From NCBI GenBank assembly GCA_964016885.1, contig OZ024742.1, positions 173,600,001 through 173,664,000 on the forward strand: DNA of 64,000 nucleotides, given 5' to 3'. Within the stretch, counting starts at the first letter, position 1, and every line of letters starts with the position of its first letter. Below the pieces are notes generated by a model, which was given only the letters and a program-made list of their open reading frames with translations, had not been told where the DNA came from and did no database searches. Of this stretch, positions 4,756-57,300 are shown in pieces. This DNA is from Eledone cirrhosa (lineage: Eukaryota). The translations under genes and the position numbers were made by a program.

Positions 4756-4759
<4 letters not shown>

Positions 4760-4848
4760 TTCTACAGGACTAGAACTGTTTCATTCATTAGAAATCATCA
4801 GAGTACCTTACTTACTGTGGTTACCTCCGATTCAATCCGGAATAACGT
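4756..4848. mobile_element. Family A solo-pLTR fragment (inverted HHR plus tail)
   Basis: Two pieces match 5623-5826 in opposite orientations; flanked by (TA)n. Confidence 0.75.
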
Positions 4849-5624: not shown

Positions 5625-5823
5625 GTTATTCCGGGTTGAATCGGAGGTAACCGCAGTAAGTAAGGTACTCAATACATAGCAGAGTATAACAGTTTTAATA
5701 TAGATGAGATTCTACAGGACTAGAACTGTTTCATTCATTAGAAATCATCAGGAATCTCTGATTCCTGATGATTTCTAATGAATGAAACAGTTCTAGTCCT
5801 GTAGAATCTCATCTATATTAAAA

Positions 5824-5826
<3 letters not shown>
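5623..5826. mobile_element. Family A fold-back element with two opposed hammerheads (5708-5756 -, 5760-5808 +)
   Basis: Perfect ~65-bp inverted repeat; gattc CTGATGA tttctaatgaat GAAA cag-ttctagtc-ctg TA gaatc. Confidence 0.85.
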
Positions 5827-22849: not shown

Positions 22850-23120
22850 AAATTATTTAGCCTGATAGTAGGGTTAAGAACCATCGGAGAAATGAAAAGA
22901 GATGAGTATTGATGTACATGGGAGTCGAACCCACATCTTTGGTTATCAGGATCACTGTGCTACCATTTACACCAAAACATCACCCTGGTGTAAATGGTAC
23001 ACAGTCAGTGGTCCGGATAACCAAAGATCTGGGTTCGACTCCCATGTACGTCAATACTCATCTTTTTCCATTTCTCCGAGGGTTCTTAACACCACTATCA
23101 GGCTAAATAATTTCTGTAAT
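22843..23120. mobile_element. Fold-back element with two divergent tRNA-like heads
   Basis: ~130-bp inverted arms; tggtgtaaatggta (A box) and gggttcgactccc (B box/T arm). Confidence 0.7.
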
Positions 23121-34696: not shown

Positions 34697-34785
<89 letters not shown>

Positions 34786-34936
34786 ATACTTTGGGAGGGT
34801 CATGTTGCCAATAAGAAACACACGCACCAGTTGTTTCACTTCAATTTAATTTAATATATATTTATAAATTTACAAATTTATAAATTTCTGGTTGGTTGGT
34901 TGGTTCCACAACCAGATAGTTGTTTATATATATATA

Positions 34937-34979
34937 GTCATAGTTCTTTCGTCACACACTCTGTGACCTCTTCAGTGAC
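34937..34979 (-). ncRNA. Hammerhead ribozyme in the 3' pLTR
   Basis: gtca CTGAAGA g gtcaca-gagtg-tgtgac GAAA gaac TA tgac. Confidence 0.85.
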
Positions 34980-35284
34980 TGGGGATTTCTTTCTTCGTTT
35001 CTGTGCCTTTCCTTTCTTCTATCCTACGCCATTTTGTTTGTGTGTGGGTTGCGTGCTCAGTTTGCGCATGCGCCACATCCGGGTGTCTGTGTGTGTTTGT
35101 GTTCATTTTTCTATTTTTCTATGTTTATATTTATATTTGTTTGTTTATTTATTTATTTATTGTTGGTTGGTTGTTTGTTCTATGTGTGTGTGTGTTTTCA
35201 TTTTGTCTTGTGTGTGTTTTCATTTTGTGTGTGTTTTCAATTGTAAGTTGTTTATATATGTGTGTGTGTGTTTTCATTTTGTCC

Positions 35285-38200
35285 TTAATTGTAAGTTGTG
35301 ATGTTGCTGTTCCACTCATATTTTCTATTTAATTTTGGTTTTAATTCTTTTATGCTTACTGCCTCTGTAATTTGCCTAAACATTGCGTCTTTCTTGTGTG
35401 TGGATTCTATTTTTATTTCTATGCTCTCTAATTTACCCCTGTGTTCTATCTTAGCATGTTGGTAGAGCACAGATGATTCTTTACTATCTTGGAGGTCTCG
35501 CCAGTGTTCATTTATTCGTTCCCCTATACTACGAGCTGTCTCACCTATGTACACTATATTTTTGTTTCTACATTGTCCCTCAGTACATCTTATGCTATAT
35601 ACTACATTTCTAGTTTTACAGTTAATATGGGGGCTTATTTTACAGGTTATACATTTCTTATCTATACATGAGGGTCTTTGGAACGGGTATGTCTTGCTAA
35701 TAAGTGTTTTTACGGAGGTACCAGGTCTTTCTACTATCTTAATATTGAGATTATGTTTCTTTAGGGCCCTTCTAAATTTGTAGGCTAGTTCACCTCTAGG
35801 GGTTGTATTGATGAACATTACACTCTGGTATTTATTGCTATCATACCATGAGTTTATTCTATTGGCCTTGTTCTTAGTTCTTTCTATTCTATTCCAAAAT
35901 TTGCTCCTATACAAGGGGCAGGTCCCATTTATGTCATTATTTACCATTTTTTCCCATTTGGTTCTGGCTCCTTTATACACTCTGATTCTATCTCTCTGAT
36001 TGTAGCCAGAGAACTGCATACGGTGGATGAAGTGTTGTATGTGTCTCTCTAGTTCTTCGGGGTTGCACATGCGGGACACATTTCTCATCACCCGTATCAA
36101 ATCCGCAATCAGTATGTTGATTTTGGTATGGTCCGAAATGGCCGAGTTTCGGTGGATCAGATGTTTGGAAGTCATGGGTTTGGCATAATGGGAATGGAGG
36201 ATTTGTTTTTGGTTGTTAATAGTATCTAACCAGAGCTCTGTGTCTAGTACAGGTAATCGATGGTTGGGGTGTCTACTTGGGTAGTCTATAGTAACTCTAA
36301 TGCTCTGGTGGATGGAGTTTGCTATTTGCTGGATGCTTTCCATTGTGTTTTTCTCAGGTTCCTGACTGTTCTTTAGTGGGGGTGTCTTAACTACGATGTT
36401 TATATCATCTACGTAGCGGGAGTACATTATCAGGGTTAATCTGTCTTCTAATTGTTCTTTAAGTTTTTGTTTAAGTCTACTGTCCCACCATACCATGAAC
36501 AAGTTAGCTATGTCGCCTGCAATGCTAACACCAATGGCTGCTCCTTCCTCTTGGGCATATGTTTTACCATTAAATTTGAACATATGTTCCTTAAGGGTTA
36601 ATTTTATGCTGGCCCCTACCGCATGTGCAATCATTTTCTTCAGTTCATCGTGGTTTTCGGGTGTCCGTATGGCTCTGGTCCACCCGTTCCATCTATCTGT
36701 GTGGGTTTTCTTGGCCATTGAGGTAATGGTAGGTGGTCTGCCTCTTGCTGGTCTTGTAGGGCACAGGTTGCTAAGGTCATAAGTGTCTAGGTAACTATTA
36801 CTATGGGTAAGCTTAAGTAGAAGTCCCAGCTCACTGGTATCAATCCCACGGAACTCAACCTTGCTCTCGCTGATCATTTCGACGCATTTCTCCACAGCAA
36901 AATCCACGTCAATAGATGGATACAGGGACACAACATCCATACTGCCTATTATGCAGTTTGTTAGGTCCCCAGATCGGTTACCCGCGTCGATTCTGCTGAG
37001 GAGGTCCTCCGTGCTGTCACACACATCTGGGGACATCTCAATGATGGGGCGTATGATCAGGGAGAGGAAGTAGGACAGTCTGTAGTTACTAGCAATGTTA
37101 GCCCCACAGACTGGCCGTGTTGGTGGTCCCGCGACAGGGTCCCAGCCCGTTTTATGGTCTTTTCGAAGCCCATACAACGCCGGCACGTCATTGTTCCAGG
37201 CCTGGAAGTTGTTGGCAGTCCTTTTGTTGGGCTGCATTATATTTGTCCACATCACCATATGGGCATTGAGGGTTTTTTCTCTGTCCTCATGCTCCTGTGG
37301 TGTTACCTCTCTTGTGTTAGTGATGTGGGGTTGCATTGCCTGGATGTAGTTTGGCAGGCTGTCAACCGACATTCTGCCAGACTTGTCTGTTGGAAAGCAT
37401 GCTATCTCTCCATTACGCGAGCGCTGCATGAGCTTACGCAAGCCATTTGCAGATTCTTCTCCCAGTTGCTGGGCCTCTATTCTATTATGCTTCTTGCTAT
37501 ACTGTTCTATAATATTTCTAAGTTCGGATTTAGCTATACTAAATTGTGCTTCTGTTTGTTCATCGACCTGCGACGGCAACTGCGTGCGTTTGTTAAATGG
37601 CAAAGTCGTGGCGTGGACTCGTCGTAGGTCGAATGATTTATCGGAGTGGTTATAAAACGGAGAGTTCCAGGCTGCTGCTTTATGTGTACTTGCGCTATTG
37701 TTAGTTGTGTTGTTTCTATTTCCACCAACAGCAGCAGCCTCAGCTTCATGGTTGTTTCTATGTCTCTCATAATTACTCCTGTCTCTTTCCACTGGCTCAA
37801 TGTTGTTATCTACCCTATTTTGTGTGTCTGTGTGTTCGTCTTGGTTATTCTCTTTGTCCTTAGTCTCCCTACTCCTTTTAATCCTATTACTTTCTCTTAT
37901 TTCTCTGATTTCTGTGCTACTGTCATTACTTGTTTTCTGTGTCTGTGTGTTTGTTAAGATTGTAGTGGTGGTGAGAGGCATTGAATGTGTGTGTGTTGTT
38001 GTTGTTGATGTGTGTTGTTGTTGATGTGTGTTGTTGTCTCCGTGTGTGTGTGTGTTATCGTTGTTGTGTGTGTTGTTATTGTTGTTTGTGTTTGCGTGTC
38101 TGTTGTTGTTGTATCTGGGTATGTTGCTGTTGTTGTTGTTGTTGATGTGTGTGTTGTTGTTATTGTTGTCTCCGTGTGTGTTGTTATTGTTGTTTGTGTC

Positions 38201-39058
38201 TGCGTGTCTGTTGTATCTGGGTATGTTGCTATTGTTGTTGTTATTGTTTGTGTCTGTGTGTCTGTTGTTGTTGGGATGTGTGTTGTATATGTGTGTGCGT
38301 ATATTGTTGCTTTTGTTTTTGTTTTTGATGCTCCAGCGTAGTTTCGTAAATGATTTTTCTATTTCTGACAGACAACTAATCATATTTACCTTCTTGAATG
38401 TCGCAAATTTGGGTGGCAAACGTAACACAGACATTTCATTATTATCTATTTTCGTGTTTCCATAAATGTTGGTATTTTCATTGTTGAACTCTTCAGATAA
38501 TGAGGTGTCGGCCATGTTGATACCGTCAATTTTGTCGGGATATCTATTGGTATACTCTATAGTATCCCGATTTAGCTTTGCCTGTTTAAGCCACTTTAAT
38601 TTTCTGTTAAAGTGCTTATTACATTCTTGAGTAATGTACTGTTCTTCGGGGCGTATAAGGCTTATAAATGTTAGTTTTTCTGCTGGTGTGGTGATTTTAG
38701 ATATTTCATCTATTAGGTTACGCTTTAGTTTTTCTTGATGACTTAATTCTCTATAGATCTTCTTTTTTATGTTTAGAATTAAAGTTCGTTTTAGCCTATC
38801 TGCTTGTTTTTTGGTGAGTTGTAATCTTCTAACGTCGGTATTGATGGTGTTGGTGTAGATTCTAGAAGTGGTGCACAGTTTTATGAAGTGTAGTTGTCGA
38901 GATGTTATGGTTTTTCGTAGACAACAGAACATGGTGGTTTTCAGTATCTTGTTAGCCTGGCTAAGGCTTACGATATTTCGTTTCTGAATTTGTTTAGCAA
39001 GATTCTTTATCTGAAATCGTGTGTTGAAACCGATATTGTTATACTTTGGGAGGGTCAT
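35285..39058 (-). CDS. PLE reverse transcriptase-GIY-YIG endonuclease polyprotein, 1257 aa from the first ATG (Nematis-clade-like)
   Basis: TDKSG, LYGLRKDHK, GSMDVVSLYPSI, QEEGAAIG, RYVDD, CxxxxCxxC, VVYSIRC...YIGETAR, ITEAV, LN; uninterrupted. Confidence 0.95.
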   Translation of the reverse strand: MTLPKYNNIGFNTRFQIKNLAKQIQKRNIVSLSQANKILKTTMFCCLRKTITSRQLHFIKLCTTSRIYTNTINTDVRRLQLTKKQADRLKRTLILNIKKKIYRELSHQEKLKRNLIDEISKITTPAEKLTFISLIRPEEQYITQECNKHFNRKLKWLKQAKLNRDTIEYTNRYPDKIDGINMADTSLSEEFNNENTNIYGNTKIDNNEMSVLRLPPKFATFKKVNMISCLSEIEKSFTKLRWSIKNKNKSNNIRTHIYNTHPNNNRHTDTNNNNNNSNIPRYNRHADTNNNNNTHGDNNNNNTHINNNNNSNIPRYNNNRHANTNNNNNTHNNDNTHTHGDNNTHQQQHTSTTTTHTHSMPLTTTTILTNTQTQKTSNDSSTEIREIRESNRIKRSRETKDKENNQDEHTDTQNRVDNNIEPVERDRSNYERHRNNHEAEAAAVGGNRNNTTNNSASTHKAAAWNSPFYNHSDKSFDLRRVHATTLPFNKRTQLPSQVDEQTEAQFSIAKSELRNIIEQYSKKHNRIEAQQLGEESANGLRKLMQRSRNGEIACFPTDKSGRMSVDSLPNYIQAMQPHITNTREVTPQEHEDREKTLNAHMVMWTNIMQPNKRTANNFQAWNNDVPALYGLRKDHKTGWDPVAGPPTRPVCGANIASNYRLSYFLSLIIRPIIEMSPDVCDSTEDLLSRIDAGNRSGDLTNCIIGSMDVVSLYPSIDVDFAVEKCVEMISESKVEFRGIDTSELGLLLKLTHSNSYLDTYDLSNLCPTRPARGRPPTITSMAKKTHTDRWNGWTRAIRTPENHDELKKMIAHAVGASIKLTLKEHMFKFNGKTYAQEEGAAIGVSIAGDIANLFMVWWDSRLKQKLKEQLEDRLTLIMYSRYVDDINIVVKTPPLKNSQEPEKNTMESIQQIANSIHQSIRVTIDYPSRHPNHRLPVLDTELWLDTINNQKQILHSHYAKPMTSKHLIHRNSAISDHTKINILIADLIRVMRNVSRMCNPEELERHIQHFIHRMQFSGYNQRDRIRVYKGARTKWEKMVNNDINGTCPLYRSKFWNRIERTKNKANRINSWYDSNKYQSVMFINTTPRGELAYKFRRALKKHNLNIKIVERPGTSVKTLISKTYPFQRPSCIDKKCITCKISPHINCKTRNVVYSIRCTEGQCRNKNIVYIGETARSIGERINEHWRDLQDSKESSVLYQHAKIEHRGKLESIEIKIESTHKKDAMFRQITEAVSIKELKPKLNRKYEWNSNITTYN

Positions 39059-39192
39059 GTTGCCAATAAGAAACACACGCACCAGTTGCTTTCACTTCAA
39101 TTTAATTTATTAAATATTTATAAATTTACAAATTTATAAATTTCTGGTTGGTTGGTTGGTTCCACAACCAGATAGTTGTTTATATATATATA

Positions 39193-39235
39193 GTCATAGT
39201 TCTTTCGTCACACACTCTGTGACCTCTTCAGTGAC
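39193..39235 (-). ncRNA. Hammerhead ribozyme in the 5' pLTR
   Basis: Identical to 34937-34979. Confidence 0.85.
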
Positions 39236-39267
39236 TGGGGATTTCTTTCTTCGTTTCTGTGCCTTTC

Positions 39268-40855
39268 CAGCGAGAGCAAGGTTGAGTTCCGTGGGATTGA
39301 TACCAGTGAGCTGGGACTTCTACTTAAGCTTACCCATAGTAATAGTTACCTAGACACTTATGACCTTAGCAACCTGTGCCCTACAAGACCAGCAAGAGGC
39401 AGACCACCTACCATTACCTCAATGGCCAAGAAAACCCACACAGATAGATGGAACGGGTGGACCAGAGCCATACGGACACCCGAAAACCACGATGAACTGA
39501 AGAAAATGATTGCACATGCGGTAGGGGCCAGCATAAAACTAACCCTTAAGGAACATATGTTCAAATTTAATGGTAAAACATATGCCCAAGAGGAAGGAGC
39601 AGCCATTGGTGTTAGCATTGCAGGCGACATAGCTAACTTATTCATGGTATGGTGGGACAGTAGACTTAAACAAAAACTTAATGAACAATTAGAAGACAGC
39701 TTAACCCTGATAATGTACTCCCGCTACGTAGATGATATAAACATCGTAGTTAAGACACCCCCACTAAAGAACAGTCAGGAACTAGAGAAAAACACAATGG
39801 AAAGCATCCAGCAAATAGCAAACTCCATCCACCAGAGCATTAGAGTTACTATAGACTACCCAAGTAGACACCCCAACCATCGATTACCTGTACTAGACAC
39901 AGAGCTCTGGTTAGATACTATTAACAACCAAAAACAAATCCTCCATTCCCATTATGCCAAACCCATGACTTCCAAACATCTGATCCACCGAAACTCGGCC
40001 ATTTCGGACCATACCAAAATCAACATACTGATTGCGGATTTGGTACGGGTGATGAGAAATGTGTCCCGCATGTGCAACCCCGAAGAACTAGAGAGACACA
40101 TACAACACTTCATCCACCGTATGCAGTTCTCTGGCTACAATCAGAGAGATAGAATCAGAGTGTATAAAGGAGCCAGAACCAAATGGGAAAAAATGGTAAA
40201 TAATGACATAAATGGGACCTGCCCCTTGTATAGGAGCAAATTTTGGAATAGAATAGAAAGAACTAAGAACAAGGCCAATAGAATAAACTCATGGTATGAT
40301 AGCAATAAATACCAGAGTGTAATGTTCATCAATACAACCCCTAGAGGTGAACTAGCCTACAAATTTAGAAGGGCCCTAAAGAAACATAATCTCAATATTA
40401 AGATAGTAGAAAGACCTGGTACCTCCGTAAAAACACTTATTAGCAAGACATACCCGTTCCAAAGACCCTCATGTATAGATAAGAAATGTATAACCTGTAA
40501 AATAAGCCCCCATATTAACTGTAAAACTAGAAATGTAGTATATAGCATAAGATGTACTGAGGGACAATGTAGAAACAAAAATATAGTGTACATAGGTGAG
40601 ACAGCTCGTAGTATAGGGGAACGAATAAATGAACACTGGCGAGACCTCCAAGATAGTAAAGAATCATCTGTGCTCTACCAACATGCTAAGATAGAACACA
40701 GGGGTAAATTAGAGAGCATAGAAATAAAAATAGAATCCACACACAAGAAAGACGCAATGTTTAGGCAAATTACAGAGGCAGTAAGCATAAAAGAATTAAA
40801 ACCAAAATTAAATAGAAAATATGAGTGGAACAGCAACATCACAACTTACAATTAA
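39268..40855 (+). pseudogene. 5'-truncated inverted copy of the PLE ORF (RT C-half and GIY-YIG)
   Basis: The 477-aa ORF differs from the full copy at about 4 residues. Confidence 0.9.
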
Positions 40856-41160
40856 GGACAAAATGAAAACACACACACACATATATAAACAACTTACAAT
40901 TGAAAACACACACAAAATGAAAACACACACAAGACAAAATGAAAACACACACACACATAGAACAAACAACCAACCAACAATAAATAAATAAATAAACAAA
41001 CAAATATAAATATAAAAATAGAAAAATAGAAAAATGAACACAAACACACACAGACACCCGGATGTGGCGCATGCGCAAACTGAGCACGCAACCCACACAC
41101 AAACAAAATGGCGTAGGATAGAAGAAAGGAAAGGCACAGAAACGAAGAAAGAAATCCCCA

Positions 41161-41203
41161 GTCACTGAAGAGGTCACAGAGTGTGTGACGAAAGAACTAT
41201 GAC
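41161..41203 (+). ncRNA. Hammerhead ribozyme in the pLTR of the inverted copy
   Basis: Identical motif on the + strand. Confidence 0.85.
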
Positions 41204-41416
41204 TATATATATATAAACAACTATCTGGTTGTGGAACCAACCAACCAACCAGAAATTTATAAATTTGTAAATTTATAAATATATATTAAATTAAATTGAA
41301 GTGAAACAACTGGTGCGTGTGTTTCTTATTGGCAACATGACCCTCCCAAAGTATAACAATATCGGTTTCAACACACGATTTCAGATAAAGAATCTTGCTA
41401 AACAAATTCAGAAACG

Positions 41417-41452
<36 letters not shown>

Positions 41453-41967: not shown

Positions 41968-42112
41968 TTAAAATAACAGATTAATAAATATTTTCTCTAC
42001 GGTTCTTATATGTTTGATATATATTTATCCTTATCGAGCCCCCTTTGGATTTTAGTCTTCAAATTTATTATTATTACTATATATATATATATATAGTTAA
42101 AAGAATAGAGGT

Positions 42113-43036
42113 GTAACACACAAGTTATTATATATTGGTAAACGGAATAGAAAATGCTGACAGATTGTTCACAGTTGAAAAATGGTTTAATTAGGAATAA
42201 AAGAGTATTAGTAATTGTATGGGTTAGTATTCAGTTGTGGTTTTAAGTTTTTAAGTGTTTACCGGTTGCGCATTTCTAAATGCTTTTCAAAAATAATTTT
42301 GAGATAGAGTGTCCGTGTTGTTTGCTCTGATCTGATTAGTTTTTGGAATTCTACCTGTTTTTATGTTAAAAAAGTGGCTCCAGCGCTACTTGGTGTTTGC
42401 AAAAATTCTTGTGGTCAAAACAATTTTGATTGGTCTGTAGAGGTTATGTGAATAAAAAATTGGTTTTGCGCCAAGATTGAGAAATGACTCTTTCACAACA
42501 AATATGAGTGTGTGTGTGTGTGTGTGTGTATAGTAGTAGTAAGGTGTAAGATGTTGTGATGATGGTTAGCAGGGATGTGTGTCAAATGGCTATTAAGATA
42601 AGTGTGCGTGTGTGTGTGTGTATGTGTGTGTGTGTGTGTGTGTGTGTTTGTGTGTATAGAGCAGAGTAATTCGTGGTAGCAGGGATGGTCAGTAAGAATG
42701 TGTCTGTAAGCAATGGGGAGTATGTTAGCATATCAAAAGATATATTTCAGCTTTTGTCTTATACGGAGAACTGCGTGTGTGTGTGTGTGTGTGTGTGTGT
42801 ATAAGTCTCTTTGTATGTTAATGTACGCGTGTGTATGTGTGTGTGTATATATGTGTGTGTGTGTGTGTGTGATAATGTGTGTGTGTGTGTGTGGACCAGT
42901 CTTTTTTCCCCCTGGTAAAATGGTGTACATTATTCGATTTTTTCAGTAAAATCGGTTCTCTTAATAGAACATCAAAAATCTTAACAATAAAAGGTGTGAA
43001 ATGATATTCACTATATATATATACACATACATATAT

Positions 43037-43080
<44 letters not shown>

Positions 43081-44636
43081 TTTTTTTGTGTTGCACCATA
43101 GAGCATGTGTGTTTACGTATGTCATTGTGTTTATATCTGGGTAGAGATGTGTGCTGATGTAGGTATGTATGTTGACGTGTGTATGTTGTGGGTTCGTCTT
43201 AGGGAGAAGTGTTTAGACGGGGTCCGTATTTGTTAATGAAGTAAGATTCCTTGCTGATGCGCTGGGTGTGGGTGGCATTATCTTTAAATTTGTAGGGGGG
43301 AAAGGTTCTGAAGTTGGGATGATTTGGGGCGGCACAGGTATAAATGTGTTCACTCAGTGGTATTTTCCTGTATTCCCGTATTTTAATTTGGGATCTATGG
43401 ACAGTCATGCGTTGGCGGAGGCTGTATCTGGTCTAGCCTATGTATTGTTCTCGACAACCTGAGCAAGTTAATCCATATATTAGCTTTTCCCATGCACATT
43501 TGAAATTGTGTTTTTCTATAAAACGTTGTCCTTCTTTGAAATAGAATTCCGAACCCTCTATTAGGTTGAAGCAAATGCCACAGTTGGGTCTATCGCATTT
43601 TTTTACTGTGGGTTTCGTTGTTGTGGTTGGCAGTACTTTGGCATGTGTTAGGATGTTTTTCATTGACTTGGATTGTCTTTTGCTCTTTATGATATCGTGT
43701 GTTCATAGGATTTGGTTCATTCTATGGTCCTTTTTCAACACAGGGATGTTCTGGAGGATGGTGTCAAAGGCCTCATTGTTGAGGGGGTTGTGTGTGGAGA
43801 TGTATGGAAGAGCTTTTAGTTTCGGTTGATTTACTTTAGGATGTCTAAGGTCCTGGGTACTGAGTTTTAGGGCACGTTGGATTCCATTGTCAATTAGTGA
43901 TGCAGGGTTGTCCCTGCCTATGAGTGTGTCCTTTAGTTCTTGTAGCCGTAAGTAGCAGATGTTTTTATTGGAGACTATAGTACAGACTCTCTTGGCTAAG
44001 TTGTAGGGAATATTAATTTTAACGTGTCTAGGGTGGCAAAAGTTGAAAGGGAGATATTGCTTGGAGTCTGTGGGCTTGTAGTATATGTCTGTTTCTATTT
44101 TTTGTTATGGATCTTAATGAGGATGTCGCAAAACCAACTTTTTATTCACATGACGCAAAACCTATTTTTTATTCACATGTCGCAAAACCAATTTTTTATT
44201 CACATGACCTCTACCGACCAATCAAAATTATTTTGACCGCAATAATTTTTGCAAACACCAAGTAGCGCTGGAGCCACTTTTTTAACATAAAAACAGTCTT
44301 GGCGCAAAATCAATTTTTTACATTCACATGACCTCTGCCGACCAATCAAAATTGTTTTGACCACAAGAATTTTTTCAACACCAAAGTAGCGCTGGAGCCA
44401 CTTTTTTTACATAAAAACAGGTAGAATTCCAAAAACTAATCAGATCAGAGCAAACAACACGGACACTCTATCTCAAAATTATTTTTGAAAAGCATTTAGA
44501 AATGCGCAACCGGTAAAATCTTAAAAACTTAAAACCACAACTGAATACTAACCCATACAATTACTAATACTCTTTTATTCCTAATTAAACCATTTTTCAA
44601 CTGTGAACAATTTGTCAGCATTTTCTATTCCGTTTA

Positions 44637-44640
<4 letters not shown>
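42113..44640 (-). mobile_element. Decayed Neptune-like PLE: thumb/EN remnant (43199-44110), pLTR (42135-42500) and inverted pLTR (44125-44640)
   Basis: YYKPTDSKQYLPFNFCHPRH, CDRPNCGIC, LIYGLTCSGCREQYIG, ESYFINKYGPRLN; inverted pLTR pair. Confidence 0.85.
44481..44519 (+). ncRNA. Variant hammerhead (U3-A8, A13C); copies at 42256-42294 (-) and 7834-7870 (+)
   Basis: attt TTGAAAA gcattt-aga-aatgc GCAA ccgg TA aaat. Confidence 0.6.
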
Positions 44641-44685
<45 letters not shown>

Positions 44686-44735
44686 AATTTATATCTAGTA
44701 ACATTTATATACACACAGATGCATATCAATACTAG

Positions 44736-44770
<35 letters not shown>

Positions 44771-44854
44771 AGGTTTAGCAAATAAGAAAAAGTTTCAAAA
44801 TAAATTTTTAAAAATTAACGTTACTTACTATAATTACCTTTACCGATATATATG

Positions 44855-44926
<72 letters not shown>

Positions 44927-44927
44927 A

Positions 44928-45012
<85 letters not shown>

Positions 45013-45030
45013 TACATATATATGCATATA

Positions 45031-45084
<54 letters not shown>

Positions 45085-45089
45085 TATAT

Positions 45090-45171
<82 letters not shown>

Positions 45172-45245
45172 CGTAAAATAAGAAAATTATAAAATTAACA
45201 TACTTACTAAAATATCACTTCCAACTAATTAGTTTCTGGAATGGA

Positions 45246-45281
<36 letters not shown>

Positions 45282-45287
<6 letters not shown>

Positions 45288-46196
45288 CGTAAAATAAGAA
45301 AATTATAAAATTAACTTACTTACTAAAATATCACTTCCAACTAATTAGTTTCTGGAATGGAATAAATATATTTTCCTAAGAAGATACAGAGGAGCATTCC
45401 GTCGTCAGGGAGGTCTATTCTCATCTAAGTATCGAGGCAAAGCGTGCACACTGGAAACTTATTAAAAAATAATTCAGTGGATAGGAAATAGCAAAGCGTG
45501 GACTGAATTCCTAGCCATTGAGAAAATCACTGCCTCTGTGTCGGTGGCAATTTCAAAAAGAATCAATCACGTGACATCGAGGTCAATCAGTGGAAAGTTG
45601 TTTGCTAATAAGACAGCGGCCTGCTACCAGTCATTGCCAATATTGCTCGACAAATAATTTGGAGATAATTATAAAGAATTAATATCTAGTAACATATATA
45701 TACATACAGATGCATATCAATGCTAGCAAATATATAGGTTTTGTCTTAGTAACTTTGTGGTTCAATGCATTGACCTCGATGTCACGTGATTGATTCTTTT
45801 TGAATTTGCCACCGACGCAGAGGCAGTGATTTTCTCAATGGCTAGAAATTCAGTCCACGCTTTGCTATTTCCTATCCACTGAATTATTTTTTAATAAGTT
45901 TCCAGTGCCCACGCTTTGCCTGGATACTTAGATGAGAATAGACCTCCCTGACGACGGAATGCTTCTCTGTATCTTCTTCGGAAAATATATTTATTCCATT
46001 CCAGAAACTAATTAGTTGTAAGTGATATTTTAGTAAGTAAGTTAATTTTATAATTTTCTTATTTTACGTCTCTCATATTATTGTTCGGCAACCCCATGCA
46101 TTGAACTACAAAGTTACTAAGACAAAACCTATATATTTGCTAGCATTGATATGCATCTGTATGTATATATATGTTACTAGATATTAATTCTTTATA
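45282..46196. mobile_element. Family K non-coding element: two opposed, circularly permuted ~510-bp monomers with HHRs (45336-45411 -, 45945-46020 +)
   Basis: tcc CTGACGA c ggaatg...cattcc a GAAA ctaattag TT gga; arms 45282-45584/45771-46076 and 45670-45770/46097-46196. Confidence 0.85.
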
Positions 46197-46271
<75 letters not shown>

Positions 46272-46287
46272 GTATATATGTATATAT

Positions 46288-47387
<1,100 letters not shown>

Positions 47388-50974: not shown

Positions 50975-52249
50975 ATATGAAATATAAGAATCAAAGAACT
51001 GTTCAAAACATTCTTGTGCTTACAGCTGTTTCCTCCAAACCGAGGTTTGGATTCTTCGGAGCAATTTATTAATGCATGGACAGTTATATGACCTCCTTTT
51101 CAGCCGAGAGACATACCAATACATATTCAAACATTGATACATATTCAAACATTGTGGGTCAACATTCATTACAGAATTTAGAGTGGCAGTACACACTTCG
51201 AGATTACATTTATATTAATAGGTACAATCAAAAATCAAAGATATAGGTTAAAGTACAACATGAAGATAAGTGGTTATATAGTGCAAATGTTATATGTGTG
51301 GCACGCATGTGCGTCTTGTTTATATAGTGTGGCAGAGAGATATGTGTGGTAGAGGCACTTAGGTAGGTAAATAAGAGTGTTAGGTTGGTAGATCTGGTGG
51401 CAAAGTCTTTATATGATTGATATAGTCTGTGTGTGGAGAAATATTATAAGCATTAAAGATAGTGCAAGCATTAAAAGTGTTATAAGTATTGGAGATGCAC
51501 AGCGCAGGGATGTCAAGTAATTCATGTACTTCGGCATTTTCATGGTCAAGGGAGTGTATATTTCGAGTATATGCCTTTCACATAATCCACGACAATCCAG
51601 TTAGAGATCGTAGTCTGGTGTACTTTAGTTCGATACAGGAGGTTGTTACGTTTCGAGAAACGCCATTGAAAATCTACCAACCTAACACTCTTATTTACCT
51701 ACCTAAGTGCCTCTACCACACATATCTCTCTGCCACACTATATAAACAAGACGCACATGCGTGCCACACATATAACATTTGCACTATATAACCACTTATC
51801 TTCATGTTGTACTTTAACCTATATCTTTGATTTTTGATTGTACCTATTAATATAAATGTAATCTCGAAGTGTGTACTGCCACTCTAAATTCTGTAATGAA
51901 TGTTGACCCACAATGTTTGAATATGTATCAATGTTTGAATATGTATTGGTATGTCTCTCGGCTGAAAAGGAGGTCATATAACTGTCCATGCATTAATAAA
52001 TTGCTCCGAAGAATCCAAACCTCGGTTTGGAGGAAACAGCTGTAAGCACAAGAATGTTTTGAACAGTTCTTTGATTCTTATATTTCATATAACTGCTCTG
52101 TAAATCATCTGATGTTTTTACATTGAGCTACTTAACTTACTGGTAATAAGGTAGTAATACATTACTGCCTACCACTATTTAGGGTGTGTGTAAAATACTT
52201 ACAACTGCTTAAGGTTTTGTGTTTACATAACCATAAATAGTATAACTAA

Positions 52250-56968: not shown

Positions 56969-57300
56969 AATATATACACGCACAAACACATATACACACA
57001 CACGCATATATATATGTATGTGTGTGTGTATGTTGAATCCCCAAGTCTGACGAAGAGATCCATGCTGGATTCGTGTCCATAACATCCATAGGGGACCTTG
57101 AACGAAACATCTGTGAAACGTACGTAATCAATATAATGATGTAAATGAAACTTCTTCGATTTTTTCTCAATATAAACAATCTGCCTGTACATCATGTGCT
57201 AATATTAATACCACCACTAGTATATCAATACATCTCCTATACTATATGTACATGTATATATAACTATATATATATATATGCGTGTGTGAGTGTGTGTATT

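Follow-up and report, generated by a model that had tools for sequence, protein, structure and literature searches.

A 518-nt hammerhead repeat of Eledone cirrhosa: a likely new member of the animal retrozymes, probably copied by a Penelope-type enzyme from circular or tandem RNA

Results

Two truncated arms of one cyclic unit are joined head-to-head

The window, i.e. the whole 64,000-nt stretch of Eledone cirrhosa DNA analysed here, contains two inverted pairs within positions 45278-46196, with (AT)n tracts on either side (Table 1). In the first, 45278-45587 and 45769-46078 form inverted arms that are 97% complementary, and in the second, 45670-45770 is matched by 46096-46196 at 99%. Both arms were placed on the scale of a natural tandem monomer (L003, 518 nt). 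The sequence-only reading had described them as different circular permutations of one RNA of ~510 nt, closed into a circle by a 20-bp linker (46077-46096), with one hammerhead and no ORF. The cyclic unit was borne out, and 510 nt is the correct length for this locus, because the minus arm carries an 8-nt deletion relative to the 518-nt monomer. Free start points were not: the arms are both truncated at their 5' ends, and each begins at one of two fixed sites, A and B. The linker proved to be 17 nt long (unit 502-518), its edges being blurred by AT microhomology. Each unit holds a single hammerhead motif, and the longest ATG-started frame of the cyclic unit is 27 aa (at most 74 aa from stop to stop). 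With regard to the circular or multimeric template that had also been claimed, tandem arrays do exist in the genome, but the window by itself requires just a linear template of 1.2 units. As each arm has one hammerhead and the two lie in opposite orientations, this locus cannot release a monomer and represents a dead-end product.

Table 1 Features of the repeat locus and its immediate surroundings. Positions are those of the window; unit numbers refer to the 518-nt monomer.
Feature	Position	Strand	Remarks
Separate short fragment, unit 35-101	44679-44745	-	92.5% identical; site A end in (AT)n
Local duplicate of the arm B end (unit 408-501)	45162-45255	-	Within a 116-bp tandem repeat that includes the AT tract
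Arm B	45278-45770	-	Unit 1-501 (0.97 unit), lacking the 8 nt of unit 142-149; fixed site B in (AT)n
Arm B type I hammerhead motif	45333-45414	-	Core 45408-45402; predicted cut after 45339; one C-A mismatch in stem I
Head-to-head junction of the two 5'-truncated arms	45769-45770		Overlap of 2 nt
Arm A	45769-46196	+	Unit 192-518, then 1-101 (0.83 unit); fixed site A in (AT)n
Predicted pseudoknot	45934-45967	+	45934-45938 with 45963-45967, GAGAA/UUCUC; GAAAA/UUUUC in sister families
Arm A type I hammerhead motif	45942-46023	+	Core 45948-45954; predicted cut after 46017
Unit position U391	45968 (45388 on arm B)	+	Hypervariable between passes across the family; T in both arms here
118-nt 'tail', site B (unit 501) to site A (unit 101)	46079-46196	+	Linker 46079-46095 (17 nt) plus segment X, 46096-46196
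(AT)n target tract, right flank	46193-46390		Left-flank tracts at 44846-45165 and 45246-45281

The repeat is abundant and occurs in tandem elsewhere in the genome

A search of the same genome (3.0 Gb) returned 2,429 first-look candidates. Among the 40 that were scored, dozens were full-length at 97-99% identity, which excludes chance as the origin of the arm pattern, and many were spaced ~520 nt apart. The ORF-less 518-nt unit recurs as a family of many hundreds of genomic copies. Exact hammerhead patterns recovered 1,041 motifs of this type together with 9,073 in sister families, compared to none for the reversed controls. Thirty sister loci that were fetched were 68-90% identical to the unit, had tandem periods of 542-571 nt where these were visible, and mostly shared both fixed ends. 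Contigs from three sequencing runs of one sample contained only the repeat and variants of it.

Tandem arrays reached 2.7, 3.9 and 9.3 units elsewhere in the genome, whereas the present locus lacks two consecutive hammerheads. The longest array (L190:1828-6805) belongs to a sister subfamily and combines near-identical units with a short inverted B arm. It is possibly a master locus or a later expansion. Its five differences in ~4,850 nt follow a period-3 pattern, so the array may reflect later local duplication or the assembly; we consequently dropped it as proof of rolling-circle copying.

The 518-nt repeat is non-autonomous. On its sequence characters it is probably a new addition to the animal retrozymes already known, and a Penelope-type retrotransposon enzyme probably made the copies, using circular or tandem RNA as template. 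No title or abstract beginning in the literature searched described this 518-nt family, its strict pairing of ends or its substitution hotspot (both described below); supplements may list such repeats.

Arms end at two fixed sites that are paired within insertions

Ninety loci retrieved with three DNA queries resolved into 51 insertions comprising 88 segments. When permuted start points were looked for across these copies, as the sequence-only reading had proposed, the two types of end behaved differently. Forty-five segments ended at unit 101-103 (site A), 39 at unit 499-504 (site B) and 4 elsewhere, the two sites lying 118 nt apart, whilst 5' ends were scattered and no position was used more than three times. 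Addition of a position-ordered sample brought the total to 73 insertions, a set that still includes two pairs of segmental duplicates. Within the head-to-head insertions (n = 49), 43 combined A with B, four combined A and two combined B with another end, and neither A+A nor B+B occurred. The remaining 24 insertions were single-armed, ending at A (15), B (8) or elsewhere (1).

(AT)n adjoined 111 of 116 A or B ends, and most copies were flanked by it on both sides, which masks any target-site duplication of the kind (>4 bp) that retrozymes may show. Arms overlapped by at least 2 nt at the junction in 30/45 two-segment cases versus 17% expected by chance, a comparison in which BLAST-derived edges inflate the overlaps. 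Two linked SNPs (unit 294 and 367) were concordant in 37/39 and 46/50 pass pairs versus ~0.5 expected, after removal of two duplicate insertions. This agreement indicates that both arms of an insertion derive from one haplotype.

An inverted 5'-truncated arm and a tail between two fixed ends, as found in derivatives of Penelope-like elements (PLEs), are thus present in the family. The pairing of arms with two fixed ends is the footprint already known for Penelope inverted arms and 'tails', set here in (AT)n targets. This geometry could alternatively arise if a single cDNA or antisense template folded back and primed its own copying, a model that was put forward for head-to-head arms in rotifer Penelope elements (accessible text of PMC3846280). 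In 17 of 30 palindromes the lengths are compatible with one arm having copied the other, and in two of the 30 the 5' ends coincide. However, in the other 13, this locus included, the arms are too long for either to have copied the other, which refutes fold-back as a general model, and it offers no reason for a second fixed site on the second arm. We consider it very unlikely as the origin of the palindrome; it may account for a minority.

The hammerhead is conserved as a structure

A search against Rfam missed the hammerhead both at the gathering threshold and at E values up to 10, and the call is based on the motif and its covariation. Across 17 aligned motifs, 96.6% of cells paired and 27 cells were changed on both sides, compared to 10.8 in shuffled alignments (0/500 shuffles). 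The number of covarying pairs in the same alignment, four, was no better than in shuffles, and relatedness inflates scores of this kind. The motif has been retained, with compensatory changes, across families that are 68-95% identical. Judged from these alignments, it is real as a conserved structure. The stem I mismatch is found in both arms at this locus, and arm A has a second, a G-to-T change at 46019. Since this breaks a second stem I pair, the arm A hammerhead is likely weak or dead.

Stem III is a perfect palindrome, which would be suited to cleavage as a dimer, by analogy with the hammerheads of PMC4209133 as its accessible text describes them. A 5-bp pseudoknot is predicted between the strand that precedes stem I and the internal loop of stem II, with a mean pairing of 4.83 versus 4.28 (0/500 shuffles; 63 distinct rows). 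The linear natural monomer has a stable predicted fold (z = -4.33, 0/100 shuffles), and the circular majority sequence gave z = -2.8 (60 shuffles). Folding of the hammerhead alone (96 nt) gave z = -0.03 and no active fold; minimum-energy folds in general fail to form the active hammerhead.

This covariation in RNA structure bears on a further explanation, in which the repeat is a minisatellite that was spread and inverted at the DNA level by recombination or repair, without an RNA intermediate. Local duplications do exist, namely the 116-bp repeat beside arm B and the near-identical inner units of the nine-unit array. Yet the copies are dispersed, with fixed 3' ends, variable 5' truncation and a hotspot at a single site, and together with the covariation these features make a purely DNA-level origin highly improbable.

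No copy runs into a coding body of its own

Two PLE proteins were used as queries in a survey of RT matches at 200 loci, with flanks that were mostly 1.5 kb. The survey bears on the possibility that the arms are pseudo-LTR (pLTR) fragments of an autonomous PLE whose coding body is carried by other copies. Such hammerheads and tails are indeed borne by PLE pLTRs, according to the published accounts available in part, and at one locus (L175:1323-1970) site A directly abuts an RT frame. No extension of a copy into its own RT body was seen among the 200 loci, in agreement with the cyclic unit of the sequence-only reading. Instead, copies cycle in tandem, running back into the unit past both sites, and an AT tract separates every RT match near a hammerhead apart from that at L175. 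The L175 joint lies mid-RT, at a 5-nt microhomology, in a 5'-truncated PLE (the family at 39200-40855) that is unrelated to the repeat and dissimilar to its unit. It may have arisen by a later insertion or as a template-switch chimera, and as a single case it gives a weak lead towards a partner. The hallmark of autonomous PLEs, an ORF with RT plus GIY-YIG between pLTRs, was not found in the repeat's copies. An origin of the arms as pLTR fragments is accordingly assigned a very small likelihood.

Two other hammerhead patterns were tried as signs of a partner and rejected: one with a shorter stem II (25 matches) and one with another palindrome (6 matches), all of which were derivatives or chance matches judging by the matched strings. 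Comparison of the unit with the young PLE family close by (43199-44104) revealed no sequence similarity.

PLEs are themselves present close to the locus. Window positions 41970-44646 hold a truncated copy, with inverted arms, of a young and very abundant PLE family (18,643 first-look candidates), full copies of which carry an RT frame of 784 aa, overlapped by one of 455 aa, and show a tandem period of 4,734 bp. Its targets are (AT)n and its two ends lie ~40 nt apart; the scan found no standard hammerhead in it. A second PLE family forms a 2.1-kb inverted pair (34778-36872 and 38973-41422, 99.6% identical); its RT frame is 551 aa long, and its ends, set in (AT)n, are separated by ~60 nt.

A circularised monomer is the favoured template

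We propose that the locus is a single insertion, produced when a Penelope-type enzyme cut an (AT)n tract and primed from both DNA ends on a circularised monomer RNA, and we give this reading a probability of about 0.55. Its basis in the sequence comprises the cyclic unit, the fixed ends A and B and their pairing, the scattered 5' ends, the AT targets, the single haplotype and the covarying hammerhead, from which we infer the following steps. A source locus with two tandem hammerheads would be transcribed, and the RNA would cleave itself, probably while dimerised via the palindromic stem III, to free a monomer that a host ligase closes into a circle. A PLE RT-endonuclease acting in trans would then nick both strands of the target, after which priming from one DNA end would start at A, 179 nt beyond the cut site, and from the other at B, 61 nt beyond it. 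Both cDNAs would be extended back across the hammerhead, in many cases going around more than once, and their 3' ends would be joined by microhomology, giving the head-to-head palindrome.

The predicted cut site, which follows unit 440, was crossed by 111/116 arms, and at least twice by 30/116, in samples that had been chosen on hammerhead-bearing or long copies. Genome-wide there were 1,745 intact cut-site junctions versus ~10 independent 5' ends at the site (<1%). Two patterns designed to capture 5' ends at this position returned 5 and 22 matches. The former comprised two 5' ends at unit 441 and three representatives of one duplicated deletion of unit 361-440; the latter comprised 11 point variants of stem III, eight 5' ends at unit 436-441 and three rearranged copies. 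Non-native 5' flanks from the 22-match pattern numbered 11 at the cut site versus four at a control 10 nt upstream (P = 0.12). Five copies (L196, L207, L208, L210 and L213) run through one intact hammerhead before stopping at the following cut site. In addition, L197-L202 represent one duplicated insertion in which unit 361-440 is deleted exactly to the predicted cut site, as if the RT had jumped across a cleaved hammerhead.

These data also bear on the strongest competing explanation, which retains two-ended priming by a PLE and replaces the circle with a linear multimer transcribed from long tandem master arrays, the hammerhead cutting partly and mainly setting the 5' ends. The stops at a cut site after an intact hammerhead fit partly cut linear multimers and are not easily reconciled with a monomer circle; the duplicated deletion ending at the site and the 11 versus four flanks point the same way. 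Long arrays are present, and the accessible text of PMC11167929 favours unprocessed multi-copy RNA in vitro. However, the enrichment at the cut site is weak, and the stops amount to <1% of the 1,745 junctions. Read-through from a short parent would give recurrent two-arm junctions, yet none recurred among the 51 insertions apart from evident segmental duplicates, and arrays would be expected to shrink in each generation unless regenerated. We regard a linear multimer as possible, and as less probable than the circle.

Two further comparisons were of limited help. Variants private to an insertion and present in all of its passes numbered 10/214, giving no clear signature of a single template molecule, and distances within (1.8-2.3%) and between insertions (2.4%) did not separate circle from multimer. 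A circularised monomer is somewhat favoured as template, mainly because the ribozyme has been conserved across divergent families and yet the RT almost always crosses its site, from which we infer a step of cutting and religation.

A single uridine varies between passes

Unit position 391 differed between passes of the same insertion in 13/32 insertions versus 317/14,089 (2.2%) elsewhere in the unit (P ~ 1e-13). Its alleles were T (71), C (16), A (5), G (1) and a gap (1). All four bases were also found at this position in the position-ordered sample (27 motifs), where differences between subfamilies contribute. CpG decay was rejected as the cause, as other CpGs had decayed in 24/977 cases (2.5%) and A, G and gap alleles also occur. 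A heterogeneous master was rejected likewise: alleles occur on both haplotypes and in any pass, tracking neither pass number nor haplotype. A-to-I editing left no signal (A>G 24 versus T>C 33). Given that the base lies at the edge of the predicted pseudoknot, misreading by the RT at a modified or strained uridine appears the likeliest source of the variation.

In its most specific form, the proposal would make each insertion a DNA record of one ribozyme-made circle, read simultaneously by a PLE dimer whose two active sites are locked to A and B, with U391, as a modified or structurally strained uridine, misread in about a quarter of passes. We hold this combined version to be doubtful, less probable than the linear multimer. 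If true, the genome would hold thousands of in vivo readouts of PLE priming geometry, along with a specific RNA mark on a retrozyme.

Comparison with known systems

In the papers cited below, statements refer to their accessible parts. Metazoan non-LTR retrozymes (Cervera and de la Pena 2020, PMC7229834; Li, Clavereau and Pollet 2026, bioRxiv 10.64898/2026.07.22.740005) resemble the family in having an ORF-less tandem unit with one type I hammerhead each, a short palindromic stem III, low GC, a stable predicted fold and thousands of motifs; they coexist with PLEs, through which their mobilisation was proposed. Circular RNAs from animal hammerhead repeats were reported in PMC7229834, and the 2026 preprint linked retrozymes to pLTRs and observed cleavage in one of nine dimers. 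The family's units (518-571 nt) exceed the 170-400 nt of PMC7229834 and fall within the 51-972 bp of the preprint. The accessible parts of these papers describe neither (AT)n targeting nor head-to-head arms bounded by two fixed ends. For the present family the comparison covered DNA sequence, and no pLTR partner was found in the survey above. The family behaves as a retrozyme mobilised by PLE machinery would, and it shows the retrozyme characters readable from its sequence, namely a type I hammerhead in each unit, tandem units, no coding capacity and a stable monomer fold.

The inverted pLTR and tail arrangement of PLEs (Frangieh et al. 2024, PMC11167929; Craig et al. 2021, PMC8557442; Arkhipova et al. 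2013, PMC3846280) shares with it partial tandems, an inverted 5'-truncated arm, a tail at one end only, two RT starts downstream of the hammerhead, AT-rich or (TA)n targets and microhomology at 5' junctions. In PMC11167929, a PLE protein cut and extended both strands of AT-rich DNA, two internal RT starts defined the tail, and insertion in vitro was independent of hammerhead cleavage. Inverted truncated arms with a 30-40-nt tail at one end were described in PMC8557442 and PMC3846280. The present family differs in lacking an ORF and in the length of its tail (118 nt versus 30-40 nt). Pairing of A with B is also strict in the genome (43 A+B, none alike), in contrast to the PLE in vitro (PMC11167929), where start sites were the same on both strands.

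The minimal hammerheads of PLEs (Cervera and de la Pena 2014, PMC4209133) share the type I order, a long helix II, a helix I of 5-6 bp, a palindromic loop 3 suited to dimers and an unpaired base at the 5' end of stem II. Helix II of the family differs from these in having an internal loop and a distal hairpin, and in its predicted, covarying pseudoknot of 5 bp with the strand that precedes stem I.

The accessible literature debates the way in which PLEs generate inverted arms and tails, and also whether transposition really uses retrozyme circles as its template. As the class is already known, the present locus contributes one more case and two details, and not a new system. Footprints can nevertheless be counted in a family this young, short and numerous: the pairing of A with B constrains the geometry of the enzyme, stops at the cut site bear on the choice between circle and multimer, and U391 is a position that could be probed for an RNA modification. 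PLE priming and the nature of the template become testable through three features of the family, namely its strict pairing of ends, its pseudoknot and its U391 hotspot.

Other features of the window

Two further hammerhead-bearing features were observed. A different small hammerhead family, with head-to-head arms and fixed ends of its own, lies in (AT)n at 4756-4848 and 5625-5826, and a hammerhead-like motif with a long stem II, not related to the 518-nt family, occurs at 57047-57122 (plus strand). The window also contains a weak tRNA match at 22910-22981 (minus strand, 38.6 bits), which is probably a tRNA-derived repeat, and a perfect 419-bp inverted repeat with a spacer of 278 nt at 50975-52090.
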